Assembly (NCBI GenBank): GCA_040774145.1
Contig: JAXGUU010000003.1
Span: forward strand, 1 to 38,328
Length of the DNA: 38,328 bases
Source of the DNA: Anaerolineae bacterium
GTDB taxonomy: Bacteria > Chloroflexota > Anaerolineae > B4-G1 > SLSP01
Reading direction: 5' to 3'
This document shows, piece by piece, positions 6,209 through 25,834 of the stretch. A program made the translations under genes and the position numbers. Under the pieces are notes generated by a model that was not told the DNA's origin, searched no databases, and saw only the letters and a list, made by a program, of their open reading frames with translations. Numbering within the stretch: the stretch's first letter is position 1; each line of letters opens with the position of its first letter.

Positions 6209-7168
6209 TCAGGGCGCCATCAGAGGCGACATGACCTTGCCACGCAGGGCGCGCCAGGCGAGGGCGAACATCATGGTGAGGCCGGCGAAGGCGAGGAAGA
6301 AGGTGACCTGCTCGATCCCATCGAGGTAGGCGAACTCGGCAGCTCCGATCCATGCGATCTGCAGGCCGAGCAGCACGCTGCAGGCGATGACGACCCAGCC
6401 GAAGAGCGGGATGAGCCATACCGTCGCCAGTGCAAAGGTGAACCAGATGAGGGGCAGCAGCAGATCGAGGTTGAACGGGTAGGAGGCCAGGGCGAAGACG
6501 GGCGCTGCCGCCAGGGCGACCAGGCCCGTGTGCAACAGGCCTCTGACAAGTGGTCTGCTGCGCAAGGCGGGGAGCTTGGCGCTGTCTGTTGGCGCCGCAA
6601 TCCTGCCGTTGACATAGGCTGTGACCTGGTCGAAGTTCTCGGGAAGGCAGACGACTAACATCAGCGGGCGCCACGTGCCGCGCAGGGTGATCATCCGGTG
6701 GCGCGGGGCCACCGTGAAACCGGCGAGCTCGTCCCAGCGGACCGCCTCCGTCTCCCGTGACGTGCCCAGCAGACCGGCGCCTGCCGTCTGTGGATTGCCC
6801 CCCAATAGGCCCGCGATCAGGGCCAGACGGTTGCCGGCGCGCGCGCGTCGATCCACCGTCTTCCACAGCACACCCTCGTTGTCGACCGTGAAGCTGACGC
6901 GGATGTGGTTGCCGAACGCGATCAGAGCGACCAAGAAGAGCAGGATCCCGAGAACCACGGCTGCCGCCGCCGAGATCAGCAGCATTATCGGGATCTGGTC
7001 GAACTCACCGGTGGTGGCCAAGATGAAGGTCAGCAAGAAGGCCATCAAGAGACCCGCACCTGCCGAGACGAGCAGCAGTTGTCTCGCGATCAGGGGATTG
7101 GTGACCAGCGGAATCTCAGTCTCCCACGAGAGAGAACTATCGCGCTCCAGTGGATGGGTCGTCTCCAT
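6209..7168 (-). CDS. Integral membrane protein of unknown function
   Basis: 319 aa; 2 TM helices, a soluble domain and about 4 C-terminal TM helices; GGAGGAG RBS; upstream promoter. Confidence 0.75.
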   Translation of the reverse strand: METTHPLERDSSLSWETEIPLVTNPLIARQLLLVSAGAGLLMAFLLTFILATTGEFDQIPIMLLISAAAAVVLGILLFLVALIAFGNHIRVSFTVDNEGVLWKTVDRRARAGNRLALIAGLLGGNPQTAGAGLLGTSRETEAVRWDELAGFTVAPRHRMITLRGTWRPLMLVVCLPENFDQVTAYVNGRIAAPTDSAKLPALRSRPLVRGLLHTGLVALAAAPVFALASYPFNLDLLLPLIWFTFALATVWLIPLFGWVVIACSVLLGLQIAWIGAAEFAYLDGIEQVTFFLAFAGLTMMFALAWRALRGKVMSPLMAP

Positions 7169-11326: not shown

Positions 11327-11542
11327 ACTGACGCTCTCTCCGCCACGGGTATGTGCGCTCTGCTCTGACTGTCACAGCCAGCCGCTGCTGTGCAGGCCCG
11401 ACCGCTACCGCGCTGCGGAGCAGAGTGCCCCCTCTGTCACTCCAACGCAGCTCATACAGTCTCTATGATAGGGCCAATGATGCGCGCGTCAAGGGTGTGC
11501 AGCCGCCCGATCTCGATGGAGGCGAGTTCCAGAGGACAGGGC

Positions 11543-11571
11543 TTGACAGCGAGGGAGACATCGAGTAGAAT
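11543..11571 (+). promoter_or_regulatory. sigma70-type promoter of the IclR catabolic operon
   Basis: TTGACA (11543-48), 17 nt spacer, TAGAAT (11566-71). Confidence 0.85.
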
Positions 11572-11577
11572 ATACCT

Positions 11578-11608
11578 AATATAACAGCGTTATATACAAT
11601 ATAACGCT
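11578..11608. promoter_or_regulatory. Putative IclR operator (AT-rich overlapping inverted repeats)
   Basis: AGCGTTATAT-ACA-ATATAACGCT (11586-11608, perfect 10-bp arms) overlapping ATATAAC-AGC-GTTATAT (11579-11595), directly downstream of the -10. Confidence 0.7.
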
Positions 11609-11613
11609 TCCGC

Positions 11614-12405
11614 ATGAAGAGACCTATGCCTGACTACCGAATTGCCGTCGTCGAAGATGCCATTCACGTGCTGGAGACCTTCCTGCACGTGGATCACGCC
11701 CTCTCACTTGCCGAGATCACTGAGCGGACGGGTCTGGTGAAGAACAAGGTCTTTCGCATCCTCGCAACCCTTCAGGCCCATCGTCTCGTCGTACGCAATG
11801 ATCAGGGGGAGTATACCCTGGGCCTGCGCATGGTGGAGTTTTGCGATCATGTGCGCAGCCGCGATGTCGTCGTTCAGGCTGCTACGCCGGTCATGGACTG
11901 GCTGAGTGATGAGACCCGCGAGACAGTTTTCCTCGGTGCCATCGATGGCACTGAGGTCCTTGTGCTCGCGGCTCGGGAGTCGCCGCAGTCGGTACGCCTG
12001 TTTGGGTCGGTGGGACGCCGCGCCCCGATTCACACGGGCGGCATCCCCAAGGTGTTGCTGGCGTTCCTGCCGAGCAGTGAGCGCAAGGCGATTCTCGATC
12101 AGATCAGCCTTGATCCCATCACGCCGTACACCTACACGGATCGTGATCGCCTTGAGGCGTTCCTCGATGAGATTCACGAGCAGGGCTACGTTGTGACGGC
12201 GGACGATCTCGACGTGGGCGCGGTCTCGATCGCTGCGCCGATTCGCGATTACAGCGGTCAGGTCGTTGCGGCGATGTCTGTGGCAGGCCCTCTATCGCGC
12301 ATGCCTGAAGCCACGTCGCAGCATTACGCCGACCTCGTCTTGCGGGGTGCGGCCCGGGTGTCGCAGACCCTGGGCTATCGCTCGACCCGGCACGACGCAC
12401 CCTAG
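11614..12405 (+). CDS. IclR-family transcriptional regulator
   Basis: N-terminal wHTH (LSLAEITERTGLVKNKVFRILATL..YTLG), TRETVFL, GRRAPIHTGGIPKVLLA, SIAAPIRDYSGQVVAAMSVAGP; true start may be ATG 11626. Confidence 0.95.
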   Translation: MKRPMPDYRIAVVEDAIHVLETFLHVDHALSLAEITERTGLVKNKVFRILATLQAHRLVVRNDQGEYTLGLRMVEFCDHVRSRDVVVQAATPVMDWLSDETRETVFLGAIDGTEVLVLAARESPQSVRLFGSVGRRAPIHTGGIPKVLLAFLPSSERKAILDQISLDPITPYTYTDRDRLEAFLDEIHEQGYVVTADDLDVGAVSIAAPIRDYSGQVVAAMSVAGPLSRMPEATSQHYADLVLRGAARVSQTLGYRSTRHDAP

Positions 12406-12417
12406 CGCGCTCTCTAC

Positions 12418-12462
12418 TCCAATGCTCAGCCACGCACGCAGGATGCGTGGCTGAGCATTGGA
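12418..12462. repeat. Perfect 19-bp inverted repeat (intercistronic stem-loop)
   Basis: TCCAATGCTCAGCCACGCA-cgcagga-TGCGTGGCTGAGCATTGGA; no U-tract. Confidence 0.85.
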
Positions 12463-12484
12463 AGGAATTTGAAAGGTGATCCTG

Positions 12485-13687
12485 ATGAAGACGAAACGCT
12501 ACAACGGCTACGCTTCATTCCAGTACCTGGAACCGGGCATCGATTACCGTCCGTTTGAGCTTGCGGCACAGATCGCGCGCGTGCCGACCTACACGGTGCC
12601 GGTGTCTGAGGCTCAGGAGGCCCTGGTTCAGCAGATCCTCACAGAGGAGATGATTGTGTCGCTCCACGAGCACACGAGCGTGATGCCCGAGGACGTCAGC
12701 GAGTCGGTCGAGTATGCCCGTCAGGGCCGGGAGCGCACCGGCTTTGCGGGTCTCGCCGCCTCGGGCCTCGACGTGGTCTTCGAGAACTTCATGGACGGCA
12801 CGGCCACGATCACGTCGCTTGCCGGCTGGAAGTGGACCGACGTGATCCACGACTTCGGTATGCGCCAGAGCGACTTCGACCATCAGGACATGCTCTTTGT
12901 CGCCCGTACGCTGGACGATCTCACGCGTGCCAAGCGAGAGGATCGCATTGCCCTCGTTGCCAGTTTCGAGTCGGCGACGCCCATCGAGAACGAGATCGAT
13001 CGCGTCGATGTGCTCTACGGCCTGGGCGTGCGGGCGATGGGGATTACCTATTCTGAGAGCAACGCCTTGGGGTCGGGACTCAAGGAGCCCACCGATGGGG
13101 GCCTGACGACCTTCGGACGCCAGGTCGTGCGCCGTATGAACCGGCTCGGTATGACGATCGACACCGCGCACTGCGGCGATCGCACGGCGATCGATGTGGC
13201 TGAGGCCAGCGAGCGCCCGGTTCTGATGTCGCACGTGGGGGCCCGCGCCCTCTGGGACACGAACCGTATGAAGTCCGACGATGCGCTCAAGGCGGTCGCC
13301 GCAGGCGGCGGCCTCATCGGCATCGAGGCCGCCCCGCATACCACGCTCACAGCGGCTCATCCGCACCACTCGATCGAGTCGGTGATGGAGCACTTCGAGT
13401 ATGTGGCCGAGCTGGTCGGGCTCGACCACGTGACCTTCGGCCCTGACACGCTCTACGGCGACCACGTGGGCCTGCATCACGCCTACGCCTCGCAACTCTC
13501 GATCGGCGCGACGCACAAGGGGCCGACGTTCGAGGAGGTCCCCTACGTCAAGGGGCTGGAGAACCCGACCGAGTGCTTCCCGAACATCATCCGCTGGCTT
13601 GTGAGCCATGGTTATGAGAGGGAAGAGATCGCCAAGGTGGTGGGCAAGAACGCCCTGCGCGTCCTTGCGGCGACCTGGGTTCGCTGA
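12485..13687 (+). CDS. Membrane (renal) dipeptidase-family amidohydrolase, peptidase M19, paralog 1
   Basis: SLHEH, SFESATPIEN, ITYSESN, GGLTTFGRQVVRRMNRLGMTIDTAH, MSH, GGLIGI, VGLDHVTFGPD, KVVGKNALRV; ATG after AAAGGTGA (track starts GTG 12476). Confidence 0.88.
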   Translation: MKTKRYNGYASFQYLEPGIDYRPFELAAQIARVPTYTVPVSEAQEALVQQILTEEMIVSLHEHTSVMPEDVSESVEYARQGRERTGFAGLAASGLDVVFENFMDGTATITSLAGWKWTDVIHDFGMRQSDFDHQDMLFVARTLDDLTRAKREDRIALVASFESATPIENEIDRVDVLYGLGVRAMGITYSESNALGSGLKEPTDGGLTTFGRQVVRRMNRLGMTIDTAHCGDRTAIDVAEASERPVLMSHVGARALWDTNRMKSDDALKAVAAGGGLIGIEAAPHTTLTAAHPHHSIESVMEHFEYVAELVGLDHVTFGPDTLYGDHVGLHHAYASQLSIGATHKGPTFEEVPYVKGLENPTECFPNIIRWLVSHGYEREEIAKVVGKNALRVLAATWVR

Positions 13688-13777
13688 GTGTCCTATCGCG
13701 CGCTTCCACGTGCTCAAGACGTAGATGCGTGGGTGGCGTGCGGACAAGATCCATTATCCAACTAAGGAGATTCGTGA

Positions 13778-14983
13778 ATGGCGAAGAAACGAGCCTATAA
13801 CGGCTATACAGCCTATCGGTATTTGGAGGCAGGCGTCGACTACCGCGCTTTCGACCTCTGCGGTGGCGACGACATCTTCCCTGAGTACCTGATCCCACTG
13901 ACGGTGGATCAAGAAGTCCGGGCCGAGGCGTTGGCCGAGGAGCTCATCTGCATCTCGCTGCACGAGCACCCGGTCCTCTTCCCCAAGGACATCGCACGCG
14001 ATGTCTTCGAGTACAATCGCGAGGGACGGCAGGCGACTGCCTATGCGGCGCTAGCGCGCAGCAACTGGGACTGCGTCTTCGACAACATGATGGACGGCAC
14101 CTGCACGATTCACTCGAAGGCGGGATGGAAGTGGGAGTCGATCATCCACGACATTGGGATGCGGCTCTCGGACATCGCGCATCAGGACTTTATCATCAAG
14201 GCCGAGCGCGTGGAGGACATCGAGCGCGCCCACGATGAGGGCAAGCTGGCGCTGGTGTTGGTCATCGAGGGGGCTGCCCCCATCGAGAACGAGGTCGATC
14301 GGGTGGATATCCTCTACGGCCTCGGAGTGCGGCTGATGGGCATTACGTACAGCGAGTCGAATGCGCTGGGTTCGGGCCTCAAGGAAGATCACGACGGTGG
14401 GCTCACGGCCTTCGGACGCGAGGTCGTGACGCGGATGAACAAGATCGGTATGGCCATCGACTGCTCGCACGTCGGCATCCGGACGACGCTGGACGTCATC
14501 GACTACAGCAGCAAGCCGATCTTCATGAGCCACGTCGGCGCCAAGGCCCTCTGGGATAGCCGCCGCCTGGCCCCCGATGAGGTCCTCAAGGCCTGTGCCG
14601 CTAAGGGTGGCGTGATCGGTATCGAGGCGGCCCCGCACACGACCATCACCCGCAAGACCACTGAGCACTCCATCGAATCCTTTATGGAGCACTTCGAGTA
14701 CGTCAAGGATCTCGTCGGCATCGACCACGTGACCTTCGGTCCTGATACCCTCTACGGTGATCACGTCGGGCTGCACCACGCCTTCGCCGCGCATCTTTCG
14801 ACCCAGGGGACGCAGGGTAATACCCAGGCGTTCAACGAGGTCGCCTACGTCCGCGGCATTGAGAACCCCACTGAGGGATCCAAGAACATCCTGCGCTACC
14901 TGGTGCGCGAGGGGTACTCCGACGAGGATATCGCCAAGGTGGTGGGGCAGAACGTGCTCCGGGTCTTGCGGGAAGTCTGGTGA
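13778..14983 (+). CDS. Membrane (renal) dipeptidase-family amidohydrolase, peptidase M19, paralog 2
   Basis: Colinear with paralog 1: SLHEH, IEGAAPIEN, ITYSESNALGSGLKE, IDCSH, MSH, GIDHVTFGPD, GQNVLRV; AAGGAG RBS. Confidence 0.88.
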   Translation: MAKKRAYNGYTAYRYLEAGVDYRAFDLCGGDDIFPEYLIPLTVDQEVRAEALAEELICISLHEHPVLFPKDIARDVFEYNREGRQATAYAALARSNWDCVFDNMMDGTCTIHSKAGWKWESIIHDIGMRLSDIAHQDFIIKAERVEDIERAHDEGKLALVLVIEGAAPIENEVDRVDILYGLGVRLMGITYSESNALGSGLKEDHDGGLTAFGREVVTRMNKIGMAIDCSHVGIRTTLDVIDYSSKPIFMSHVGAKALWDSRRLAPDEVLKACAAKGGVIGIEAAPHTTITRKTTEHSIESFMEHFEYVKDLVGIDHVTFGPDTLYGDHVGLHHAFAAHLSTQGTQGNTQAFNEVAYVRGIENPTEGSKNILRYLVREGYSDEDIAKVVGQNVLRVLREVW

Positions 14984-14993
14984 GAGGAGCGTG

Positions 14994-15752
14994 ATGACGA
15001 TGCGCATTCTGTACGCTGTTCCCGGTCCGATGGACCGCCAGGAGCTGGATCGCCGGGTGGGCATGCTGCGGGGTTGGGCTGCGCCCGGCACCGAGGTGGA
15101 CATCATCTGTGCGAGTGAGGGACCGGCCTCCATCGAGAGTATGTATGAGGAGTACCTGTCGATCCCTGCGGCGATGAAGCTGATCTACGCGGCACATGGC
15201 GAGGGCTATGATGCGGCGATCCTCGGATGCGCCGGCGACCCGGGGCTGGATGCCGCTCGTGAGATCACCGACACGATGCTCGTCGTCGGTCCCGGACAGA
15301 CCAGCTTCCAGGTTGCGGCGATGCTCGGACACCGCTTCTCGGTCCTCACGATTGAGGACAGCATGATCGCCAGCAGCTACGAGTTGGCCTTCAAAGCCGG
15401 TGTGCACGCCAAACTGGCCTCGGTGGTCTCGGTCAATATCCCGGTGTTGGAGCTGGCGACCAACCGCGCTGCGTCGCTTGAGAAGATCGCCGCGGCAGGG
15501 CGTCTCGCCGTTGAGCGAGATCGCGCGGACGTCCTAGCTCTCGGCTGCATGTCGATGGGGTTCCTTGATATGGCCAAGGAGATCGAGGCCCTCGTCGGTG
15601 TGCCGGTCATCAACCCGTCGCTGACGGGGCTCAAGGTCGCGGAGGCTCTGGTGGGTAGCGGCTTGATGCACTCGAAGGCCGCTTTCGCGACGCCGCCGAA
15701 ACTCAAGAGCGGCAAGGTCGCGGACCTGGACGAGTTGTACGTCCGGTTGTGA
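14994..15752 (+). CDS. Asp/Glu/hydantoin racemase family protein (hydantoin/allantoin racemase-like)
   Basis: GPASIES, two catalytic Cys motifs ILGCAGDPGLDAARE and LALGCMSM, GVPVINP; GAGGAG RBS (start 14994 or 15000). Confidence 0.9.
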   Translation: MTMRILYAVPGPMDRQELDRRVGMLRGWAAPGTEVDIICASEGPASIESMYEEYLSIPAAMKLIYAAHGEGYDAAILGCAGDPGLDAAREITDTMLVVGPGQTSFQVAAMLGHRFSVLTIEDSMIASSYELAFKAGVHAKLASVVSVNIPVLELATNRAASLEKIAAAGRLAVERDRADVLALGCMSMGFLDMAKEIEALVGVPVINPSLTGLKVAEALVGSGLMHSKAAFATPPKLKSGKVADLDELYVRL

Positions 15753-15767
15753 GCTGCGAATGAAGGA

Positions 15768-15799
15768 CCCTCCGCAGGGTCTATGGGCTCTGCGGAGGG
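15768..15799. repeat. GC-rich intercistronic stem-loop
   Basis: CCCTCCGCAGGGTC...GGCTCTGCGGAGGG, about 14 bp with G-U pairs, between racemase and nitroreductase. Confidence 0.65.
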
Positions 15800-15818
15800 C
15801 GTTGGGAGGGGGGAGACT

Positions 15819-16376
15819 ATGGAATTCGATGAGGTTATCGCTCGACGCCGCAGCATCCGATCTTACGAGGATCGGGACGTCGATGACGATGTGATCGCGC
15901 GTCTGCTGGCTTACGGACATCAGGCGCCGAGCGGCGGCAACCTACATCCGTGGACCTTCATCATCGTCCGCGATAGGGAGCAGCGCCGCCGCATCGTCGA
16001 CACGACCTACCGGGGCAACGACTTCAACGGCACAGCGCATCAGGAGTGGTTGATGCAGGCGCCGGTGTTGATCGTCGTCGCTGCTGACAAGGTCAAGAGC
16101 GCTGCCCGTTACGGTGAGCAGGCGCTGAAGACGCTGATCTACCTCGATTGCTCGGCGTGCATCGAGAACATCCTGCTCGGCGCGGTCAATCTGGGCCTGG
16201 CGAGCTGCTACATCAGCGGCTTCCGTGAGGAGGAGCTGGGAGCCGTGTTGGGCCTGCCCGACACCCACGAGGTGATCGGTTTTCTGCCCGTGGGATATGG
16301 CGCCGACGAGGGCAGGGCGCGCCCCAGGACGCCGTTGGCGGAGTTGGTCCACCGCGAACGGTGGGGAGGACGCTGA
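15819..16376 (+). CDS. Nitroreductase-family flavoprotein
   Basis: RRSIRSY, APSGGNLHPW, QAPVLIVV, ENILLGAVNLGLASCYI, LPVGY; GGGAG RBS. Confidence 0.92.
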   Translation: MEFDEVIARRRSIRSYEDRDVDDDVIARLLAYGHQAPSGGNLHPWTFIIVRDREQRRRIVDTTYRGNDFNGTAHQEWLMQAPVLIVVAADKVKSAARYGEQALKTLIYLDCSACIENILLGAVNLGLASCYISGFREEELGAVLGLPDTHEVIGFLPVGYGADEGRARPRTPLAELVHRERWGGR

Positions 16377-17365
16377 TGGATGAGCCTACGCTGAGGATTG
16401 AGGCGTTGAGTGTGGGCTTCCGGGACCGCGAGACCAAGGAGGTCGTCAATGTGTTGCGTGACGTCTCCTTCGATGTGCCGGCGGATTATGTCTTGGGCAT
16501 CGTCGGTGAGTCGGGCTGCGGCAAGAGCATCACGATGCACACCGTGATGGGCCTGCTCCCGCGTACAGCCGTGGTGACCTCCGGCGAGATCCACTATGGG
16601 GGCACGAATTTGCTGACCTTGAACCAGGAGGAGATGAACCGGTACCGGGGTGAGGAGATCGCGATGATCTTCCAGGAGCCGATGACGTCGCTCAACCCGG
16701 TCTACAAGGTCGGCGATCAGATCGCGGAGATGCTGATGCTGCACCAGGAGATCAGCCGCCAGGATGCGTTGGCCGAGGCGGTCCATAAGCTGGAGCTGGT
16801 CTCGATCCCCTCGCCGGAGAAGGTCGTGGAGCAGTATCCGCACGAGCTGTCGGGCGGGATGCGCCAGCGGGTGATGATCGCCATCGCTATGGCGTGCAAT
16901 CCCAAGATCCTGATCGCCGACGAGCCCACGACGGCGCTCGACGTCACGATTCAGGCCCAGATCCTGTCGCTGATGAAGACGATCAAGGAGCAGATGCGCT
17001 CGTCGATCATCCTGATCACGCACGACCTCGGCGTGGTGGCGGAGATGTGCGACGAGGTCGTGGTGATGTATGCCGGCGACGTGGTTGAGAAGGCGGATGT
17101 GGTGCATCTCTTCAAGGAGCCTAGCCATCCGTACACCAACGGGCTGCTTAAGTCCTTGCCGATGCTGCACTCGAGCGACGAGAGGCTCTACAACATCGAG
17201 GGCACGGTACCCTCACCGCGCAACTTCCCCGAGGCCTGTCGCTTTGCACCGCGCTGTGAGTTCGCCTTTGATCGCTGCCTTGAGGCGCGGCCCCCACTGT
17301 TCCGCATCGGTCCCGGCCACGAGGCGGCCTGTTGGCTGCGCGACCCGGAGGGAGAGGGGCTATGA
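16376..17365 (+). CDS. oppD: Oligopeptide/dipeptide ABC transporter ATP-binding subunit (OppD/DppD-like)
   Basis: Walker A GESGCGKS, IFQEPMTSLNP, YPHELSGGMRQR, LIADEPTTALDVTIQAQI, HPYT, Cys-rich C-terminus; TGATG overlap with upstream stop. Confidence 0.95.
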   Translation: MDEPTLRIEALSVGFRDRETKEVVNVLRDVSFDVPADYVLGIVGESGCGKSITMHTVMGLLPRTAVVTSGEIHYGGTNLLTLNQEEMNRYRGEEIAMIFQEPMTSLNPVYKVGDQIAEMLMLHQEISRQDALAEAVHKLELVSIPSPEKVVEQYPHELSGGMRQRVMIAIAMACNPKILIADEPTTALDVTIQAQILSLMKTIKEQMRSSIILITHDLGVVAEMCDEVVVMYAGDVVEKADVVHLFKEPSHPYTNGLLKSLPMLHSSDERLYNIEGTVPSPRNFPEACRFAPRCEFAFDRCLEARPPLFRIGPGHEAACWLRDPEGEGL

Positions 17366-18339
17366 GCGAGACCATCCTTGAGGTCAAGGGGCTCAAGAAG
17401 CATTTCCGCGTGAAGGGGAGGGGCTTTGGCCGCCCCATGATGGCGCGAGCCGTCGATGAGGTGAGCTTCACCCTGCACAAGGGCGAGACGTTGGGACTTG
17501 TCGGCGAGAGCGGATCGGGCAAGTCGACGGCGGGCCGGGCGCTGCTGCGCCTCATCGAGCCCACGGCGGGTTCGGTGGTTTATCGAGGTGTCGACATCGC
17601 GAAGCTGCGCGGCGAGCGGCTCCGTACGACGCGGAAGAACCTGCAGATGATGTTTCAGGATCCCTATGCCGCTCTCAATCCACGGATGACCGTGGGTGAG
17701 GCCGTCACCGAACCGATGCTCGCCCACAAAATGGCAACACCACGCGAGGCCACCGAGCGTGCCTGTGAGATCCTGGAAGACGTCGGTCTGCGGGCCGAGT
17801 ATTACTATCGCTACCCTCACGAGTTCAGCGGCGGGCAGAAACAGCGGATCAGCATGGCGCGCTCGCTGGCGGTGTCACCGGAGATCCTGGTAGCTGACGA
17901 GCCGGTGTCGGCCCTCGATGTCTCGATTCAGGCACAGATCATCAACCTGTTCAAGGATCTGCAGGCAGAACACGGCATGACGTACCTGTTCATCGCGCAC
18001 GACCTCAGCGTCGTCCGCTATCTGAGCGACCGCATCGCGGTGATGTATCTGGGCGAGATCGTCGAGCTGTGCAGCAAGGACGAGCTCTTTGATAACCCGC
18101 TGCACCCCTACACACGGGCACTGATCTCGGCGATCCCGATTCCCGATCCTACCGCCGGCAAGGACCGTATCATCCTGGAGGGTGATATCCCGAGCCCGAC
18201 CGCCGTGCCGCCGGGCTGCCGCTTCGGCACGCGCTGTCCTGAGTGCCGTCCGGAGTGCCTCGGCGAACACCCACAGCTGCAGGATCTCGGTGGTCATTGG
18301 GTGCGGTGCCATATCTGTGATAGGGAGGTGGCGTCGTGA
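17362..18339 (+). CDS. oppF: Oligopeptide/dipeptide ABC transporter ATP-binding subunit (OppF/DppF-like)
   Basis: GESGSGKS, FQDPYAALNPR, YPHEFSGGQKQRI, ADEPVSALDVSIQAQ, PLHPYT, GCRFGTRCP; ATGA overlap. Confidence 0.95.
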   Translation: MSETILEVKGLKKHFRVKGRGFGRPMMARAVDEVSFTLHKGETLGLVGESGSGKSTAGRALLRLIEPTAGSVVYRGVDIAKLRGERLRTTRKNLQMMFQDPYAALNPRMTVGEAVTEPMLAHKMATPREATERACEILEDVGLRAEYYYRYPHEFSGGQKQRISMARSLAVSPEILVADEPVSALDVSIQAQIINLFKDLQAEHGMTYLFIAHDLSVVRYLSDRIAVMYLGEIVELCSKDELFDNPLHPYTRALISAIPIPDPTAGKDRIILEGDIPSPTAVPPGCRFGTRCPECRPECLGEHPQLQDLGGHWVRCHICDREVAS

Positions 18340-19301
18340 GCCGCTACATCGCCGAACGTGTTCTCAAAGGCGTCGCGACCTTGCTGATCACGATCACCTT
18401 GACGTTCCTGATCGTGCGGCTGTTGCCCTCGGACCCGGCGCTGATGATGCTGGGTGAGATGTTCACCGCCGAACAACGCGATGCGCTTATCGCGCAGTTC
18501 GGACTCGACAAACCGCTGCTGCAGCAGTACTTCATCTACCTGGGCAATCTTGTTCGTGGTGACCTGGGCATGTCGTTCTTCCAGCGCCGCCCCGTGATGA
18601 CCGTCATCCGTGAGAAGCTGCCGTGGACGCTGCTGTTGATGATCACGACCCAGATTCTGACGATGGTCGTAGGCATCCCGCTCGGCATCTACTCGGGCTA
18701 CAAGCGTGGGTCCCTCTTCGACCAGGTGGTCAACGCTGTGGCGATCTTCGGGGTCTCGGTCTTCGTGCCCTGGCTGGGCTTCACGCTGCTCTACTTTTTC
18801 GGCTATCGGATGCCGATCTTCCCGATCGGCGGTGCCTACAAGATCGGGACCTCGGGCTTCGCGCACTTCGTCAGTATCGGTCGACACCTGGTCCTGCCGG
18901 TGACGACGCTGATGGTGATCTACCTGGCCAACTATGTGCTTTACACGCGCGGCAGCGTGATCGACGTGATGGAGGAGGACTACATCAAGACGGCGCGCTC
19001 CAAGGGCATGAAGGAGCGGCGAGTGCTCTGGAAGCATGCCGCGAAGAACGCCATGATCCCCACCGTCACCATGGCCGGCATGATGCTCGGACAGATGGTG
19101 GGCGGGGCCGTGCTCACCGAGACGATCTACGCCTATCCGGGGGTCGGTCGGATGATCTACCAGGCCGTCGGCCAGCAGGACTATCCCGTGCTGCAGGGCG
19201 CTTTCATCATCCTGGCCCTCAGTGTGATCGTGATGAACATCGTCACCGATATCGCCATCGTCTACCTCGATCCGCGCATCAAGCTGGAGCGATCATCATG
19301 A
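18336..19301 (+). CDS. oppB: Oligopeptide ABC transporter permease (OppB/DppB-like)
   Basis: GLDKPLLQQY, GDLGMSF, EDYIKTARSKG EAA-loop, GAVLTETIYAYPGVG, DYPVLQG, LDPRI. Confidence 0.95.
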   Translation: MSRYIAERVLKGVATLLITITLTFLIVRLLPSDPALMMLGEMFTAEQRDALIAQFGLDKPLLQQYFIYLGNLVRGDLGMSFFQRRPVMTVIREKLPWTLLLMITTQILTMVVGIPLGIYSGYKRGSLFDQVVNAVAIFGVSVFVPWLGFTLLYFFGYRMPIFPIGGAYKIGTSGFAHFVSIGRHLVLPVTTLMVIYLANYVLYTRGSVIDVMEEDYIKTARSKGMKERRVLWKHAAKNAMIPTVTMAGMMLGQMVGGAVLTETIYAYPGVGRMIYQAVGQQDYPVLQGAFIILALSVIVMNIVTDIAIVYLDPRIKLERSS

Positions 19302-20167
19302 ACCAGCGACCGAGCCTATTCAGCAAATGGGAGAAGGAGATCCAGGCTTTCTTCCGCCACCCCATCGGGGTGATCGGCCTGGCAGGGGTGGCCTTCGTCT
19401 TCCTCGTGGCGCTGTTCGCGCCGCTGCTGGCAGCGCCGGTGGCGGGCTATGGCGTCTATGAGGAGCGCCTTATGGCGCCCGGACTGGGCCATCCCTTCGG
19501 CACCGACGACATGGGTCGCGACCTCTTTTCTCAGGTCGTGTGGGGCACGCGTGCCTCGATCAAGGTGGCGGTCCTGGCAGTGCTCACGGCCACGGTCATC
19601 GGGGTCCCCATAGGCCTGCTCTCCGGCTACTTCCACGGATTCGTCGACACCATCGGTATGGGTCTCGTGGAGATCTTCCTGACGATACCGATGCTGCCGC
19701 TGATCATCATCGTCACCGCCGTCTCCAACACACAGAGTATCGATATGGTGGCGATCATCATCGGTCTCTTCTCGTGGCCCACGATTGCGCGTATCACACG
19801 TGCCTCCACGCTGCAGGTCTCCAGTATGCAGTACATCGAGGCCGCACGCTGCCTGGGCATCCGCATCGGCAAGATCATCTTCAAGCACGTCTTGGTGAAC
19901 GCCAGCACGCCGGTGCTGATCAACCTGACCATCGTGATGGCCACGTCTATTATCACGGAGTCGGCGATCAGCTTTCTGGGGTTAGGTGACCCGACGACGT
20001 TCAGTTGGGGCAAGATCCTGCACAACGCCCACGCCAGTGGGGCCTTTGCCTCGGCGTGGTGGTTTTCGTTCTTCCCGAGTGTCGGCATCGTTTGGTTCGT
20101 TATCTCGTTCAACTTCCTGAGTATGGGAATTCGGGATGCCTTGAACCCGAAGATCACGCGCGGGTAA
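19298..20167 (+). CDS. oppC: Oligopeptide ABC transporter permease (OppC/DppC-like)
   Basis: HPFGTDDMGRDLFS, YIEAARCLG, ESAISFLGLG, IRDALNPK; ATG 19298 overlaps oppB stop. Confidence 0.95.
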   Translation: MNQRPSLFSKWEKEIQAFFRHPIGVIGLAGVAFVFLVALFAPLLAAPVAGYGVYEERLMAPGLGHPFGTDDMGRDLFSQVVWGTRASIKVAVLAVLTATVIGVPIGLLSGYFHGFVDTIGMGLVEIFLTIPMLPLIIIVTAVSNTQSIDMVAIIIGLFSWPTIARITRASTLQVSSMQYIEAARCLGIRIGKIIFKHVLVNASTPVLINLTIVMATSIITESAISFLGLGDPTTFSWGKILHNAHASGAFASAWWFSFFPSVGIVWFVISFNFLSMGIRDALNPKITRG

Positions 20168-20210
20168 GGGACAGTCGTAACGCACGCCTTAGCACGACAA
20201 AGGAGACATC

Positions 20211-21368
20211 ATGACGCAAGGCTTTAGCCGGAAGGAGTATGCTCGCAGGATCGGCAGCATCGCCGATCGCATCCAGGCGCGTGGCGTGGACGGCGCCCTG
20301 GTCTTCGACCCCTATAACGTCTTCTATCTGGGGCTCTATTATCATCCGGGCAAGCGCCCCGTGATCCTCTACGTGCACCATGACGGCACGGTGGTCGCCG
20401 TGACGCCCGCGATGGAGGCGCACGAGGCCCGCAAGGTGGAGCACTTCGCCGCGGTCGATGCCTACGAGGACAATTACGCTGAAGGTGCCGATGTGTACGA
20501 CTGCCTGAAGGCCACGTTGACCCAGGGCTTCGGGAAGCTGCAGAAGGTGGCGGTCGACCAGGTGGGCCTAGCCGCGTATCGGCGCCTCACCGCAATCTTC
20601 CCCGAGGTCGTTGAGGAAGACCTGGTCTTCCCCTCCCGTATCCTCAAGTCGGATGAGGAGGTCGCGATGCTCAAGCGCTCCGCCGGTTACTCGGATCATA
20701 TCGTGGCAGCGGGACGCAAGCTTCTTGCGCCGGGCGTCACGGAGCTCGGGTTGCTCAACCGGATGATCGTTGAGACCGTCGATCAGATGATCGATGATAT
20801 GGGCGACGTGATCTATGTCCCCGGTGGCCCGGCGGGCGCGTTGGTGCCCAGCGGTCTCCGGACGGCGCTGCCCCACGCCCTACCGAGCGGGCGCAAGCTG
20901 CGCGCCAACGAGCCGATGATCCTCTCCTGCGGCGCCAACGTCTGGGGCTATCGCACGGAGTGCGAGCGCACCTTCTTCGTGGGGTCGCCAAGCCCTGAGT
21001 GGTGCAAGGCCTTCGACGTGATGCGCCGCGCTCAGGCGCTGGGCATCTCGCTGATGCAGCCTGGCGCCGTCTGTGAGGAGATCGACCGCGAGGTCGCGGC
21101 GTTCATCCGCGCCGAGGGCTACGGCGATGCCATCCGCCACCGTACCGGGCACGGCAAGGGTCTCGAGGAACATGAGCCGCCCTACATCGCGATGGGCGAT
21201 CGCACCGTGATCCAACCGGGCATGATCTTTTCCAGTGAACCCGGCATCTACATCGAGGGGTTCTCAGGCTTTCGTCACTCCGACATCATCTGGGTGTCTG
21301 AGGGGGGGCCGGTGGTCCTGACGCAGTATCCCAAGGACCTTGAGAGTATGGTCGTAGCCGTAGCGTAG
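20211..21368 (+). CDS. M24 (pita-bread fold) Xaa-Pro peptidase/creatinase-like hydrolase
   Basis: Creatinase_N-like N-terminus, RILKSDEE, PHALPS, GYRTECERT, HRTGHGKGLEEHEPP, SEPGIY, GFRHSD; AAAGGAG RBS. Confidence 0.88.
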   Translation: MTQGFSRKEYARRIGSIADRIQARGVDGALVFDPYNVFYLGLYYHPGKRPVILYVHHDGTVVAVTPAMEAHEARKVEHFAAVDAYEDNYAEGADVYDCLKATLTQGFGKLQKVAVDQVGLAAYRRLTAIFPEVVEEDLVFPSRILKSDEEVAMLKRSAGYSDHIVAAGRKLLAPGVTELGLLNRMIVETVDQMIDDMGDVIYVPGGPAGALVPSGLRTALPHALPSGRKLRANEPMILSCGANVWGYRTECERTFFVGSPSPEWCKAFDVMRRAQALGISLMQPGAVCEEIDREVAAFIRAEGYGDAIRHRTGHGKGLEEHEPPYIAMGDRTVIQPGMIFSSEPGIYIEGFSGFRHSDIIWVSEGGPVVLTQYPKDLESMVVAVA

Positions 21369-21377
21369 CGAGGTGAT

Positions 21378-23000
21378 ATGACAGATTACGATGTGATCAT
21401 CAAGAACGGCTTCATCGTCGACGGTACGGGTGGTCCCGGTTTCCGAGGTGAGGTCGCGATCCGCGGTGATGTGATTGTCCAGGTGGGCACCCACATCGAC
21501 GGCACCGCCGAGCGCGTGATCGATGCCGGCGGTAGGATGGTGTGTCCCGGCCTGATCGACCCCCACGTGCACGAGGAGACCGTCGTGCTGAACGATGGGG
21601 ATTTCGAGCTCTTCCTTCGGGAGGGCGTCACGACGACGATCAATGGGAACTGCGGTCATTCGGTGACACCGGGCGACTCGCGTGGCGTCTTTGAGTACTA
21701 CTACAAGAATGGCCTGATCACGGCGGAGGCACTGGAGAAGTACTCGCGCGAACTGCCGGTTTGGCACGACTTTGCCGGCTACTGCGACCTGGTACGGCGC
21801 ACCGGCATCAATATCAACATGGGGTTTCTGCTGGGGCACGGCGCGATCCGCTGGGCCGCGATGGGGGGATCCAAAGAGCGTCCGCCGACGCCTGCCGAGG
21901 AAGAGGAGATCCTTGGAGCGATCGATGAGGGGATGCGCCAGGGGGCCCTGGGTCTGTCAACCGGGCTTTCCTATATCCCCAGCCGCTATGCCGACACCGA
22001 GGAGATCGTCAAGTGTGCGCAGGTGGTTGCCCAGCACGACGGGGTCTACGCTACCCACGCCCGTTACTACATCGGCATCGTCGAATCCACGCAAGAGGCG
22101 ATCGAGATCGGCGAGCGTTCGGGGTGCCGGGTGCAGGTCTCGCATCTCAAGCCGACCAGTCCCGAATCCTATGATCTGATCCTGGCGGCGCGCGAGCGTG
22201 GTGTGGAGGTGTTGGTCGACACGATCCCCCGCAGCACGGGCCACTGCGTGCGCAAGGACCGGTTGCTGCAGTTCATCATGGCGATCTCGTCTGAGCTTTT
22301 CGATGGGGGTGTCGAGGGGGTCAAGGCGGCGCTGCAGACGCCGGAGGGCCGCGAGCTTGTCCTCAGAGACGCCTACATCTTCGGCAACGCGATGGAGCAG
22401 ACCTTTGTCTACCACACTGGGGATCCGGCGACCGACGGGCAGTCCATCGCCGCGATCGCTGCGGCTCGCGGTGTCGAGGAGCCCAAAGAGGTGTTGCTCG
22501 ATCTGCTGGCAGCCGAGGACGATGAGCAGATGGTCTTCTGGCTGGGCGGGGCCAGCCGCGAGGACTTCCCGTGGGCTCCGCACGCCGACAGCATCATCGC
22601 CAACCCGTTGGTCATGGTCGGGTCGGACGTCATCTTTGGTGAGCCTTGGGACCCGGGCTCATGGTATGAGCTGCAGCGTCCGGGAGCCTTCCCCATCTTC
22701 ATGCGGATGTACCGCGAGAAGGGGGTGCCCGTTGAGGAGGTCGTGCGGCGCAACACCTCGATGGCTGCTACGCAGTTCAGGATCTTTGACCGAGGCCTGC
22801 TTCGCCCGGGGATGAAGGCCGATATCGCGGTGATCGACCTCGATGCGTATCGTTATCCGTCACCGGACGAGATCGACCCGCGCATTCCGCAGCAGATGGC
22901 GGAGGGCGTAGCCTACGTCCTGGTCAACGGGCAGGTGACGCTGGACGATGGCGTGGTCCGATCCGTCCGCGCAGGGGAGGTGGTGCTGAACCGCCGGTAG
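21378..23000 (+). CDS. N-acyl-D-amino-acid deacylase (D-aminoacylase) family amidohydrolase
   Basis: IKNGFIVDGTG, PGLIDPHVH, GVTT..NGNCG, GLSTGLSY.P, YATHAR, VQVSHLK, MVGSD, DRGLLRPGMKADI, VLVNG. Confidence 0.9.
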   Translation: MTDYDVIIKNGFIVDGTGGPGFRGEVAIRGDVIVQVGTHIDGTAERVIDAGGRMVCPGLIDPHVHEETVVLNDGDFELFLREGVTTTINGNCGHSVTPGDSRGVFEYYYKNGLITAEALEKYSRELPVWHDFAGYCDLVRRTGININMGFLLGHGAIRWAAMGGSKERPPTPAEEEEILGAIDEGMRQGALGLSTGLSYIPSRYADTEEIVKCAQVVAQHDGVYATHARYYIGIVESTQEAIEIGERSGCRVQVSHLKPTSPESYDLILAARERGVEVLVDTIPRSTGHCVRKDRLLQFIMAISSELFDGGVEGVKAALQTPEGRELVLRDAYIFGNAMEQTFVYHTGDPATDGQSIAAIAAARGVEEPKEVLLDLLAAEDDEQMVFWLGGASREDFPWAPHADSIIANPLVMVGSDVIFGEPWDPGSWYELQRPGAFPIFMRMYREKGVPVEEVVRRNTSMAATQFRIFDRGLLRPGMKADIAVIDLDAYRYPSPDEIDPRIPQQMAEGVAYVLVNGQVTLDDGVVRSVRAGEVVLNRR

Positions 23001-23113
23001 CGGTAGGCCCTGAGGCGCCCACCGGCAGACGATGATGTTGCCCGTATCTCATTTCGCGATCGCAGACCTATGGCATTCAACCTAACAACCCAGACTGTCA
23101 AGAAGGAGAGAGA

Positions 23114-24727
23114 GTGATGCGCAAACTTATGATGGCACTGGTGGCTCTGGTCACCCTTGCCGCAATGCTCACGGGGTGCGGTGGTGCGGGGGGCGCGGAT
23201 GAGCCCGTCACCCTGACCGTCGGCATCGCCAGTGATCCTGACTCAATGAATGTGCTCGTCAGCAACGAGATCAACACGTCTCTGATGCTGAACGCCACCT
23301 ATCCGACGTTGCTGCTGCTGGATGAGAACGGCAACAAGGAGCCGTACATCATCGAGGAGCCTGAGTACTCCGATGATGGTTTGACGGTCACCCTTCGGGT
23401 CAAGGAGGGCCTCAAGTGGACCGATGGCGAGCCGATCACGGCCCATGACATCGCCTGGACCTACGATGCAGTCTACGAGGGCAAGTTCCACTGGACCTAC
23501 ACGGTGCTCGAGGGGATCACCTGGGAGGTCGTGGATGACCAAACCATCGTCTTCACGCTTTCAGAGCCGTTCCCCAAGTTCATCAGCCAGATCGGATTCT
23601 GGGTGCGGATCGTGCCTTCGCACGTCTGGTCGCAGGCAACCGACGTCGCGTCCTTCATCGATGAGGACTTTGTCGGTTTTGGCCCGTTCCAGCTGACCGA
23701 GTACACCATCGGAGAGTACTTTATGTTCGAGCGTGTTGAGGACTTCCCCTTCACGCCCGATGATGACAAGGCCTACGTCGACACCCTGATCTTCAAGCCC
23801 TATCCGGATCCCAACACGATGGTCCTGGCGCTCAAGTCCGGTGACATCGATGTCGCGGCGCGCCCGTTGACGCACGATGCCGCTGCTGAGCTTGAGGGCA
23901 CCGCGGGGATCGCGATCGCCAGGACCATCGATCTGGGCTACGAGCATCTGCACATGAACATGAACCAGCCGCTGCTCTCAGATCCGGCGGTCCGCAAGGC
24001 TGTCGCTATGGTCGTCGATCGCGATAAGATCGTGGACTTCGCCTACGGTGGTGATGCCGTGCCTATGCCGGGCGTGGTCTCACCCCTTTACGCCGACTTC
24101 GACTACGGCATCTACCTGCCCTCCTTCGATATCGAGGGCGCCAAGGCCGTCCTGGCTGAGGCGGGCTACACCGACACCGACGGTGATGGGATCGTGAACG
24201 CGCCGACCGGCGAGAACCTCTCGTTCGAGATGATCTACGCCACGAACTACGTCGAGCACGAGAAGATCGCGACGATCATCGCGGAGGATGCCAAGGCCGC
24301 CGGCCTCGAGCTGATCCCCAAGGGCCTCGACAAGCCGGTCCAGCTCGAGCAGCTTTACCTCGAGCCGCAGGGGCGCAACAACTACCAGATCGCCATCAAC
24401 ACCTGGGGCATCATCGACGATGTCGAGTCCGCGATGAGCGATCTCTACGCACCGGGCTCCACGCTCAACTGGATGAACTGGTCCAATCCCACCGCCATCG
24501 AGGCTATGGCGAAGATGCGCTCCGCCGTGGATCCCGCTGAGACCGAGAGGTGGATGCGCGTCTTCCAGACCGAAGCCGTGAACGATATTCCCGATGTCCC
24601 GCTGGTCGTCAAGGGCAATATCTTCGCCTATCGGACTGAGTTCGATGGCTTCAAGGTCTACCCCGACGACCTCAAGGGCCTGGTCACACCCCAGAACCTC
24701 TGGAGCATCTACCGGGTCGAGCAGTAG
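23114..24727 (+). CDS. oppA: ABC transporter substrate-binding lipoprotein, family 5 (OppA/DppA-like)
   Basis: Signal peptide with lipobox LTGC, KWTDGEPITAHDI, GFGPF, DPAVRKAV, AKAVLAEAGY; AAGGAG RBS. Confidence 0.93.
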   Translation: MMRKLMMALVALVTLAAMLTGCGGAGGADEPVTLTVGIASDPDSMNVLVSNEINTSLMLNATYPTLLLLDENGNKEPYIIEEPEYSDDGLTVTLRVKEGLKWTDGEPITAHDIAWTYDAVYEGKFHWTYTVLEGITWEVVDDQTIVFTLSEPFPKFISQIGFWVRIVPSHVWSQATDVASFIDEDFVGFGPFQLTEYTIGEYFMFERVEDFPFTPDDDKAYVDTLIFKPYPDPNTMVLALKSGDIDVAARPLTHDAAAELEGTAGIAIARTIDLGYEHLHMNMNQPLLSDPAVRKAVAMVVDRDKIVDFAYGGDAVPMPGVVSPLYADFDYGIYLPSFDIEGAKAVLAEAGYTDTDGDGIVNAPTGENLSFEMIYATNYVEHEKIATIIAEDAKAAGLELIPKGLDKPVQLEQLYLEPQGRNNYQIAINTWGIIDDVESAMSDLYAPGSTLNWMNWSNPTAIEAMAKMRSAVDPAETERWMRVFQTEAVNDIPDVPLVVKGNIFAYRTEFDGFKVYPDDLKGLVTPQNLWSIYRVEQ

Positions 24728-24768
24728 TTTCCGACGCTGTTTCGGTTTTGCGATCGCCTGAGATACAC

Positions 24769-24803
24769 GAGCGGGCTTCCGATGATCATCGGGAGCCCGC
24801 TTT
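24769..24803. terminator. Intrinsic terminator closing the operon, likely bidirectional
   Basis: GAGCGGGCTTCCGAT-GATC-ATCGGGAGCCCGCTTT between convergent genes. Confidence 0.75.
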
Positions 24804-24816
24804 GCGTGTCTCGGGA

Positions 24817-25686
24817 TCAGGTATGAGGCCTGGCGACACGAGGGGAAGCTGTTCCGTGGCCTCTGTCTGCGTCGAACAGCGCTATCCAGCGGTCAAGTGA
24901 GTGGGGCAGGTTCATCGCGGTGGTGTCGTCGGACCACGGTGCACCGCATGGTGCGATCGCCAGCGCAGCCACCCTTTCGTAGTGGTCGAATTTGGCATGG
25001 CGCTCGCTCTCGGCGATGAATTGCTGGTAGTGGGTGAGGAAATCGAGATCATGGGCCAGCAGATAGCGGATGGCCTCTTTCTCTCCTGCGTAGGGCAGGC
25101 GTCGAATGGTGAAGTAGCCGGTCCACACGTCCATATGGCCGAAGATCGCCATACGCACATCGACCGTCGCGCTATAGAGGGGATCGTCCGATGCCAACAT
25201 CCGGCGGGCCTGCGCGAGGTTGTAGTTGATGGCGAACCACGAGCCGTAGACGTCCTCCTCGGGGGTGGGTTTGACCCAGGAGGTGGCGGTGACGTGCTCC
25301 CGTGCGGTCGCTAACCGACCGGATCGATCGTGGATGATGCGTCCCTGCTGAAGCCACCGGACGATGGGGGCGAGCGGGTCCTGCAAAGCGATCGGGGTCG
25401 CTAACGCCGCGATGCGACCGAGGGCTACAGCGTCGACGAAGAGCCGGTCGGTGAAGCGCCCGTCGATGATGGTCACGCCAACGTACCAGGGTGTAGGTAG
25501 GTCGTGCAGGACGATGACCAGATCGTAGTCACTGGTGGGAGAGAAGGCGTCGTTCGTCAGCGACCCGATCTGCATAACGCCGTCGATCTCCGGCTGCCCG
25601 GATAGGTGAGCGATCACGGCGTCGAGGGACCAGTCTGTGGTGGGTGCGGGGCTGGTGAGATACACGGTCGGCCTCCTTGGGCTCAT
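24817..25686 (-). CDS. DNA pol-beta-superfamily nucleotidyltransferase-domain protein
   Basis: GVMQIGS...SDYDLVIV (hGS-x-DxD) followed by a helical C-terminal domain. Confidence 0.7.
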   Translation of the reverse strand: MSPRRPTVYLTSPAPTTDWSLDAVIAHLSGQPEIDGVMQIGSLTNDAFSPTSDYDLVIVLHDLPTPWYVGVTIIDGRFTDRLFVDAVALGRIAALATPIALQDPLAPIVRWLQQGRIIHDRSGRLATAREHVTATSWVKPTPEEDVYGSWFAINYNLAQARRMLASDDPLYSATVDVRMAIFGHMDVWTGYFTIRRLPYAGEKEAIRYLLAHDLDFLTHYQQFIAESERHAKFDHYERVAALAIAPCGAPWSDDTTAMNLPHSLDRWIALFDADRGHGTASPRVARPHT

Positions 25687-25761
25687 GGTGCGGTTATTAT
25701 CCTATGGTCCGGGGCCTGCGCCAGCGGTGTCGATCAAGGCTCTCCGGGCGGGTCGGGTCGT

Positions 25762-25789
25762 TTGCGTGACTTGCCGGCGCGTGTACAAT
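25762..25789 (+). promoter_or_regulatory. Possible sigma70-type promoter for the fucosidase
   Basis: TTGCGT-16 nt-TACAAT. Confidence 0.45.
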
Positions 25790-25834
25790 GCTCAATGGTA
25801 GGTATCTCATCAGATTGACCGGGAGGCTATAGCG

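Follow-up and report, generated by a model that had tools for sequence, protein, structure and literature searches.

The dppA-E/ykfABCD genes of Bacillus subtilis and the ddpXABCDF genes of Escherichia coli serve the import and stereo-specific breakdown of cell-wall-derived D-peptides, and both systems combine a Dpp/Opp-type importer with D-specific peptidases, accompanied in B. subtilis by a dipeptide epimerase. A second arrangement is found in the hyu clusters, where a permease is encoded together with a hydantoin racemase, a hydantoinase and a carbamoylase. The locus described here lies in a metagenome-assembled genome of an Anaerolineae bacterium (GCA_040774145.1; 622 contigs, 87.8% complete), within positions 1 to 38,328 of contig JAXGUU010000003.1, the 38,328-nucleotide stretch referred to below as the window. 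It is an operon spanning 11543-24815, with 12 genes, all on the + strand, that encode an IclR-family regulator, two M19 proteins (M19a and M19b), a racemase, a nitroreductase-fold flavoenzyme (ntr), the OppDFBC importer components, an M24 protein, a D-aminoacylase-type amidohydrolase and the solute-binding protein OppA (Table 1). At the level of substrate class, it is well supported that this operon is inducible and serves the breakdown of small peptide-like amides which standard peptidases are unable to degrade fully. An original prediction, made from the sequence alone, had proposed a pathway for substrates that normal peptidases cannot use, such as diketopiperazines, D-residue peptides or peptide antibiotics. 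Gene families and synteny upheld the substrate class, and Pfam and PDB comparisons recovered the predicted family of each of the 12 genes, whereas the naming of diketopiperazines and peptide antibiotics remains a deduction from family names.

Recurrence of the gene combination was followed from two anchors. A racemase at least 60% identical to that of the window was present at 31 of 80 genome loci, and the neighbours of these 31 included an M19 gene at 22 loci, ntr at 15, the D-aminoacylase-type gene at 13 and the M24 gene at nine. All four partners occurred together at nine loci (L014, L015, L018, L019, L023, L026, L027, L029 and L032), of which two belong to same-genus relatives and the other seven to Clostridia, Eubacteriaceae, Halanaerobiales or Bacillota, and Atribacterota. 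As many contigs are truncated, the counts are minimum values, and several of the loci are close kin and not independent of one another. The second anchor was the M24 protein, for which 80 metagenome loci were used, some of their contigs probably overlapping the genome-derived loci. Where the M24 protein was at least 42% identical (24 loci), oppC lay directly upstream in 21 of the 22 loci with room for it and the D-aminoacylase-type gene directly downstream in 18 of the 23 with room; 14 of these loci were at least 10 kb long, and among them the racemase was found in 10 and an M19 gene in nine. In contrast, at the 56 loci with M24 homologues below 42% identity, oppC was directly upstream in 12 of 50 with room, the D-aminoacylase-type gene was downstream in none of 48 with room, and the racemase was found at none. 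The association is therefore specific to the orthologous group. Conserved co-occurrence in other genomes, on which the original prediction depended, was thus observed across phyla from the racemase and the M24 anchors alike, and the cluster represents a real, recurring pathway in several bacterial phyla, probably one for D-amino-acid or ring-closed peptides.

Closer to the source organism, an orthologue of the racemase (82-91% identity) was found in four of 21 other same-genus genomes and in none of 19 family or order relatives, two more same-genus genomes giving racemase matches of only 39% and 31% identity. The four carriers showed the same neighbour genes in the same order. As an M24 orthologue was detected at E ≤ 1e-80 in none of 400 other sampled genomes of the phylum, the cluster is rare and patchy in Chloroflexota, and because its next relatives are Bacillota-type anaerobes, these comparisons suggest lateral spread. 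Some variation was seen within the genus, with a third M19 paralogue in G008 and an additional Opp system in both G002 and G012. The operon at L015 (G002:C15, 1-9200) and that at L043 are longer, comprising two M19a-type genes and another full Opp system whose ATPases are fused (about 706 amino acids), followed by M19b, the racemase and the rest; the window operon has no such second importer.

The unit carries its own putative control signals. A sigma-70-type promoter (TTGACA-17-TAGAAT) matches the consensus at 11 of 12 positions and was the best of six promoter-like sites in 11000-26000 (shuffle mean 3.3). Shortly downstream, three alternating 7-nucleotide half-sites, ATATAAC-agc-GTTATAT-aca-ATATAAC, form a candidate operator that includes a perfect palindrome (AGCGTTATAT/ATATAACGCT) with 10-nucleotide arms that are 100% complementary. 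No second copy was found elsewhere in the window, where the 9-mer is confined to the two arms and a regular-expression search returned one site, on both strands; with one mismatch allowed, about two chance occurrences of the 9-mer are expected in the window, and that count is therefore uninformative. The same promoter, with TAGAAT or TAGACT as its second box, and the same three-half-site layout precede iclR in the same-genus genomes G008, G002 and G012, whose IclR orthologues are 67-76% identical to that of the window. Among the 12 genome loci with an IclR at least 40% identical near a racemase homologue, the element was recognized near iclR at seven by a relaxed pattern and at 11 by eye, the exception being L051. 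Because the element recurs in this way at racemase-linked iclR loci, the regulator and its candidate operator form, by sequence comparison, one orthologous unit that accompanies the racemase. The regulator itself consists of a winged helix-turn-helix domain (PF09339, E 3.9e-10) and an effector domain (PF01614, E 3e-40), and none of the named NCBIfam regulators reaches its cut-off for it, the best being BhcR (163 vs 350 bits). At the other end, a terminator-like hairpin (-50.7 kcal/mol, z -6.8), matched in stability by none of 200 shuffles, lies between oppA and a convergent open reading frame (ORF), abutting the stop codon of the latter. A pattern scan called no terminator after oppA, since the T-run (CTTTGCGTGT) is weak. 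With that reservation for the terminator, the predicted promoter, operator-like palindrome, 12 co-oriented and often overlapping genes, and terminator were all located.

Within the supported substrate class, linear D-residue peptides or N-acyl-D-amino acids are tentatively preferred, at a little short of an even chance. This preference arises from the characterized relatives of the M19 and amidohydrolase proteins, the peptide-type solute-binding protein, and the dipeptidases and epimerase-like genes of related clusters. The two M19 paralogues are 59% identical in alignment, and both match PF01244 only over profile positions 79-319, with an N-terminal extension of about 60 residues. The top 18 PDB matches of an AlphaFold2 model of M19b (predicted local distance difference test score, pLDDT, 86.5) were all M19 proteins (template-modelling (TM) score 0.63-0.70) and included Sco3058, among them the entry solved with an L-Leu-D-Ala phosphinate; PDB matches of M19a were 2i5g and Sco3058. 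By their Pfam matches and, for M19b, this modelling, M19a and M19b share the M19 TIM-barrel fold. In canonical M19/renal dipeptidases the ligands of the binuclear metal centre are H-x-D, E, H and H. In the window family, H62, H64, E164, H231, H252 and D323 (M19b numbering) are invariant in 35 aligned sequences, so that H62-x-H64 takes the place of H-x-D in 35 of 35, the equivalence of the positions being judged by spacing. This first-strand motif reads H-[E/D]-H (H-E-H in M19a) and sits in the N-terminal part outside the Pfam match. M19-fold proteins with such an H-x-H first motif constitute an enzyme subfamily worth assaying.

In the amidohydrolase, the motifs DPHVH (HxH), GNCG, TH, SH and GSD align with those of D-acylases, and their HxH, Cys, His, His and Asp positions are taken by us to be the metal-binding and catalytic residues. 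Its matches to D-acylases reach E values of 2.9e-48 (9g5m, an entry named in a D-acylase study) and 2.2e-44 (1m7j). The importer is complete, with a family-5 solute-binding protein (PF00496), two permeases and two ATPases with an oligo_HPY tail, and has the composition of an Opp/Dpp system. OppA carries an L-T-G-C lipobox, and its best PDB matches are the peptide binders AppA and Lmo0135. In mature E. coli DppA, D408 and R355 (precursor positions 436 and 383, residues confirmed) presumably hold the free amino and carboxyl ends of the peptide. In a low-similarity alignment of OppA and its orthologues with DppA, the Arg position is not conserved and a conserved acidic pair falls one to two residues off the Asp position.

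The racemase gave five PDB relatives at E ≤ 0.001, of which three are sequence forms of two hydantoin/allantoin racemases and the others are the fungal epimerase OpaE and an archaeal protein resembling hydantoin racemases; the E values were 1.6e-26 to 3qvj and 5.4e-25 to 5lfd, and no Glu or Asp racemase was among the matches at this threshold. Residues C79 and C185 fall in the GDPGL and LGC motifs when aligned with 3qvj, and both are present in all 18 aligned homologues. As aligned, the protein carries both catalytic cysteines of the hydantoin/allantoin racemase branch, in agreement with its predicted identity as a two-Cys hydantoin-racemase-family enzyme.

Homologues of the racemase with 50-65% identity occur in other layouts, namely IclR-M28-racemase-amidohydrolase-M20-oppABCDF-dehydrogenase in Chloroflexota, AsnC-M20-M28-racemase-enolase-type protein-MFS-SSF-M20-amidase in Bacillaceae and M28-opp-racemase(s)-M28 in Brevibacillus. 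What stays constant across these layouts is the racemase together with a transporter, in most cases a peptide-type one; the hydrolases vary, and it is therefore likely that the substrate of the racemase is the imported compound class. The names of the other enzymes serve as leads only, because none reaches its NCBIfam cut-off. The best model for the amidohydrolase (Amidohydro_1) is Xaa-Pro dipeptidase (274 bits, cut-off 500), the enolase-type protein scores best as a member of the muconate-cycloisomerase subfamily (220 bits, cut-off 335) followed by L-Ala-D/L-Glu epimerase (188 bits, cut-off 500), and a PGA_cap protein weakly matches the MslH peptide epimerase (102 bits, cut-off 700). With their dipeptidases and two kinds of peptide-epimerase-like genes, the related layouts would fit stereochemically unusual peptides.

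Several observations weigh against linear D-residue peptides or N-acyl-D-amino acids as the substrate. Specificity for L-D dipeptides is known for few M19 members only, which are 23-26% identical to the window proteins, and a D-amino-acid substrate of the amidohydrolase is not assured because a carbohydrate de-N-acetylase (9kb1/9kb3) is likewise a member of the D-aminoacylase family. The racemase gene of G012 (L012/L043, G012:C33, about 820-1573) reads in two frames, with residues 2-84 and 77-252 as separate matches, reflecting either a sequencing or assembly error or gene loss. At seven of the 31 close racemase loci, M19, ntr, the M24 gene and the D-aminoacylase-type gene are all missing, and the racemase therefore does not require them. 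Finally, the only characterized PDB relatives of the racemase, the hydantoin/allantoin racemases and OpaE, act on ring stereocentres, and OpaE is reported to epimerize a residue in a peptide-derived heterocycle. Because of these relatives, the racemase favours the catabolism of cyclic dipeptides (2,5-diketopiperazines) or other cyclic amides over that of linear peptides, and this is the strongest alternative, possible but on the whole doubtful. The ring would be imported, the racemase would epimerize a ring C-alpha, the M24 protein or the amidohydrolase would open the ring, the M19 proteins would split the resulting L-L or L-D dipeptide, and the flavoenzyme would reduce or oxidize dehydro forms.

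The M24 protein bears on this alternative in both directions. The dinuclear metal centre of M24 enzymes has the five ligands D, D, H, E and E. Aligned over its full length with the Lactococcus prolidase 6xmr, the window protein has S239, E250, H314, E343 and S357 at these positions, that is, two Ser and an Asp-to-Glu change, and this pattern is kept in all 10 cluster-linked orthologues examined and reaches M24 homologues of only 32-37% identity, whereas D/D/H/E/E is retained by four prolidase-like genes of these loci that are unrelated to it. The description of this protein as an atypical M24 hydrolase is in accord with these substitutions, and the large M24 subfamily with S/E/H/E/S metal positions is worth assaying. 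Its model (pLDDT 87) matched prolidases and creatinase at TM 0.8-0.88 (creatinase 0.88), and ectoine hydrolase about equally well; as modelled, the protein has the two-domain creatinase/prolidase fold. A literature search on ectoine hydrolase yielded no residue-level information on its metal site. Both the degenerate metal site and the similarity of the model to creatinase and ectoine hydrolase are in favour of a ring-opening role. In sequence, however, it is nearest to prolidases (E 4e-40), ahead of creatinase (9e-22) and DoeA (2.5e-14), and none of the enzymes of the operon is a known cyclic-dipeptide hydrolase. In the metagenomes, a remoter layout, M19-oppA-oppB-oppC-M24-(one gene)-oppD-oppF-M19, was also seen (L128, L158, L168, L153 and L160), in which an S/E/H/E/S-type M24 gene (35-37% identity) is joined with H-x-H-type M19 genes and which has no racemase, nitroreductase or D-acylase gene.

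A further link to cyclic dipeptides is provided by cyclodipeptide oxidases (CDOs), defined in a survey (PMC11055893) as CDOA together with CDOB (PF19585), with genes that are most abundant in phyla including Chloroflexota and Bacillota. According to the same survey, 88% of 274 CDO clusters have no synthase gene and are enriched in PF01177 racemases, peptide ABC (ATP-binding cassette) transporters and peptidases. At the operon, the pairing that defines a CDO was not found. The nitroreductase is a generic member of its family and not specially close to AlbA, which is its 13th PDB match (E 6.7e-13), and there is no room for a CDOB gene beside ntr, which lies 30 nucleotides from the racemase gene and overlaps oppD. 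A search of the 87.8%-complete genome for PF19585 gave no match, but this search is weak, as its control was positive in none of 14 genomes. In several related clusters (L061:1943-3129, L049:10979-12156 and L066:15378-16527), two neighbouring nitroreductase-fold genes of about 195 codons each, overlapping one another, stand in for the one nitroreductase gene, their products being 25-28% and 37-44% identical to the window protein and neither belonging to PF19585; the pairing suggests a heterodimeric flavoenzyme. PMC3852281 describes diketopiperazine degradation as little known, and if cyclic dipeptides are the substrate, the operon would supply genes for that route. A more far-reaching version, which we consider unlikely, is that the operon represents the missing bacterial route for mixed-stereochemistry diketopiperazines, with IclR sensing the ring, and that the IclR-operator-racemase core, recurring in Chloroflexota with other hydrolase sets, marks a broad and so far unrecognized family of cyclic-peptide operons.

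It was also considered whether the operon might serve ordinary peptide nutrition by means of a Dpp/Opp importer, general L-dipeptidases and a prolidase-like enzyme, with the racemase supplying or removing free D-amino acids such as D-Glu or D-Asp. This would agree with the resemblance of the solute-binding protein to general peptide binders, with the inclusion of Asp and Glu racemases in PF01177 and with the plain dipeptidase activity often found among M19, M24 and M20 enzymes. However, the racemase has no Asp or Glu racemase among its PDB matches, the M24 metal positions are altered in all cluster orthologues, and both the D-acylase-type enzyme and the flavoenzyme are conserved in the cluster. 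Furthermore, the patchy distribution noted above (racemase in 4/21 same-genus genomes and 0/19 family or order relatives; M24 in 0/400) is unlike that of housekeeping genes, and this explanation is regarded as improbable.

Classical use of 5-substituted hydantoins, ureides or purine-derived compounds (allantoin) in the hyu/hpx style is more improbable still. Hydantoin and allantoin racemases are the nearest solved relatives of the racemase, and the amidohydrolase is weakly similar to hydantoinases and allantoinases at its N-terminus, but the corresponding NCBIfam models match only about the first 65-68 residues and score far below their cut-offs (e.g., 74 vs 631 bits). The Amidohydro_1 and M20 enzymes of other racemase-family layouts recall the classical arrangement of racemase, hydantoinase and carbamoylase, although the Amidohydro_1 protein of these relatives scores best with the Xaa-Pro dipeptidase model, and the operon itself has no N-carbamoylase-type (M20 or nitrilase) gene and encodes a peptide-type Opp transporter, not a nucleobase/hydantoin permease. 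A creatinine pathway was rejected, as the M24 protein matches prolidases better than creatinase, and a biosynthetic role was set aside, the operon having importer genes and no synthase, non-ribosomal peptide synthetase or RiPP (ribosomally synthesized and post-translationally modified peptide) gene.

With linear D-residue peptides or N-acyl-D-amino acids as the preferred substrate, the following scheme, in which each substrate and the order of the steps are proposals, would account for the gene set. An IclR-type repressor may bind the three-half-site operator and keep iclR and the other 11 genes from being transcribed until it is released by an effector derived from the substrate. The membrane-anchored OppA-like lipoprotein and OppBCDF would then import a di- or tripeptide-sized amide poorly handled by L-specific peptidases, most plausibly linear peptides with D-residues, or N-acylated D-amino acids, derived from the debris of cell walls, aged proteins or non-ribosomal peptides. 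The M19 paralogues would cleave L-Xaa-D-Xaa dipeptides, the D-aminoacylase-type enzyme would strip an acyl or aminoacyl group off a D-amino acid, and the two-Cys racemase would invert a C-alpha activated by flanking amides, allowing the products to enter L-amino-acid metabolism. The M24 protein, in which the ligands of one of two metal sites appear to be lost, may cut a C-N bond other than the standard Xaa-Pro bond, and the nitroreductase-fold flavoenzyme may handle an oxidized or dehydro residue. If D-residue peptides are indeed the substrate, the operon would account for the ability of its carriers to use the D-amino acids in dead biomass without oxidases, and the IclR-operator pair could serve as a reporter for the inducer.

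The coordinates of the operon features are collected in Table 1. Genes overlap or are separated by at most 10 nucleotides at M19b/racemase, ntr/oppD, oppD/oppF, oppF/oppB, oppB/oppC and M24/D-aminoacylase.

Table 1. Signals and genes of the operon, with positions in the window
Feature	Position	Strand	Remarks
Sigma-70-type promoter	11543-11571	+	
Putative operator element, half-sites and palindrome	11579-11608		begins 8 nt after the -10 box
Three half-sites of the candidate operator	11579-11605		
Palindrome	11586-11608		
IclR-family regulator	11614-12405	+	PF09339 and PF01614; alternative start 11626 by comparison with the G008 orthologue
M19a, renal-dipeptidase-fold amidohydrolase	12476-13687	+	PF01244, E 1.4e-66
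M19b, paralogue of M19a	13778-14983	+	PF01244, E 4.8e-69
Two-Cys racemase/epimerase, hydantoin/allantoin-racemase branch of PF01177	14994-15752	+	start 14994 read from the sequence
Nitroreductase-fold flavoenzyme (ntr)	15783-16376	+	PF00881, E 7.7e-34
oppD, ATPase	16361-17365	+	PF00005 and PF08352
oppF, ATPase	17332-18339	+	PF00005 and PF08352
oppB, permease	18336-19301	+	permease pair: PF00528 twice, with PF19300 and PF12911
oppC, permease	19298-20167	+	start 19298 read from the sequence; ATGA overlap with oppB
M24 creatinase/prolidase-fold protein	20211-21368	+	PF01321 and PF00557
D-aminoacylase-type amidohydrolase (Amidohydro_3), 540 aa	21378-23000	+	Pfam; PDB D-acylase matches
oppA, family-5 solute-binding lipoprotein	23114-24727	+	PF00496; lipobox
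Terminator-like hairpin	24757-24815		perfect core 24770-24801

Both flanks are unrelated to the operon, which agrees with its prediction as a self-contained, IclR-headed unit. Upstream, a PAS/Cache hybrid histidine kinase of 1329 amino acids (7337-11326, - strand) with a weak Cache match, several PAS domains, HisKA, HATPase and a receiver diverges from the operon promoter region and is faced by a promoter-like sequence, TTGACG-16-TATCAT, at 11492-11465. Further upstream, ORFs at 3516-6095 (+, 859 amino acids) and 6209-7168 (-, 319 amino acids) gave no Pfam match at E ≤ 1e-5; the 859-amino-acid frame is overlapped by an ORF of 557 amino acids on the opposite strand, and either may be real. Downstream, the convergent ORF adjoining the operon end (24817-25686, - strand, 289 amino acids), for which a Pfam/NCBIfam search gave no match, is followed by an alpha-L-fucosidase gene and then by housekeeping genes, gyrA among them.

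Operons that couple peptide uptake to peptidases are common, and the present one breaks no rule, but the cluster is conserved, compact and testable. Among bacteria of at least four phyla, most of them anaerobes living on detritus, it keeps together six enzymes whose nearest studied relatives all act on amides of unusual stereochemistry or chemistry. The view that no characterized pathway has this composition still holds, as the operon is not an allantoin, creatinine, classical hyu or canonical cyclodipeptide oxidase system, and a literature search, as far as its sources were available, matched none beyond a remark on CDO neighbourhoods in PMC11055893. Relative to solved M19 and D-acylase enzymes, the window proteins have the fold in common and appear to keep metal or catalytic positions, those of the M19 pair being judged by spacing; the M19 pair differs from its solved counterparts in the H-[E/D]-H motif, the N-terminal extension and the low identity given above, and the deacylase exceeds solved D-acylases in length by about 55 residues. 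With the synthase-less CDO clusters, as described in PMC11055893, the operon shares a nitroreductase-fold protein, a PF01177 racemase, peptide ABC transporters and peptidases, and it differs from them in the lack of a detected CDOB (by the weak search mentioned above) and in a nitroreductase without special closeness to AlbA.

In comparison with the hyu clusters and HpxA/AllR (3qvj, 5lfd), the racemase belongs to the same PF01177 branch and has both Cys residues, and an amidohydrolase-superfamily enzyme and a transporter again lie beside it. The operon departs from the hyu clusters in lacking a carbamoylase, in having a peptide-type transporter and an amidohydrolase that resembles D-acylases and is not a hydantoinase, and in encoding two M19 proteins and an M24 protein besides. 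As in dpp/ykf and ddp, the operon would import peptides of unusual stereochemistry and convert them into usable forms. Those systems do so with an M55 D-aminopeptidase, the VanX-type DdpX and an enolase-superfamily epimerase, whereas the window operon has two M19 proteins, a D-acylase-type amidohydrolase, a two-Cys PF01177 enzyme, a degenerate M24 protein, a flavoenzyme and IclR. By analogy, therefore, the logic of the operon is that of the dpp/ykf, ddp or hyu clusters, and its enzyme set is different from each.

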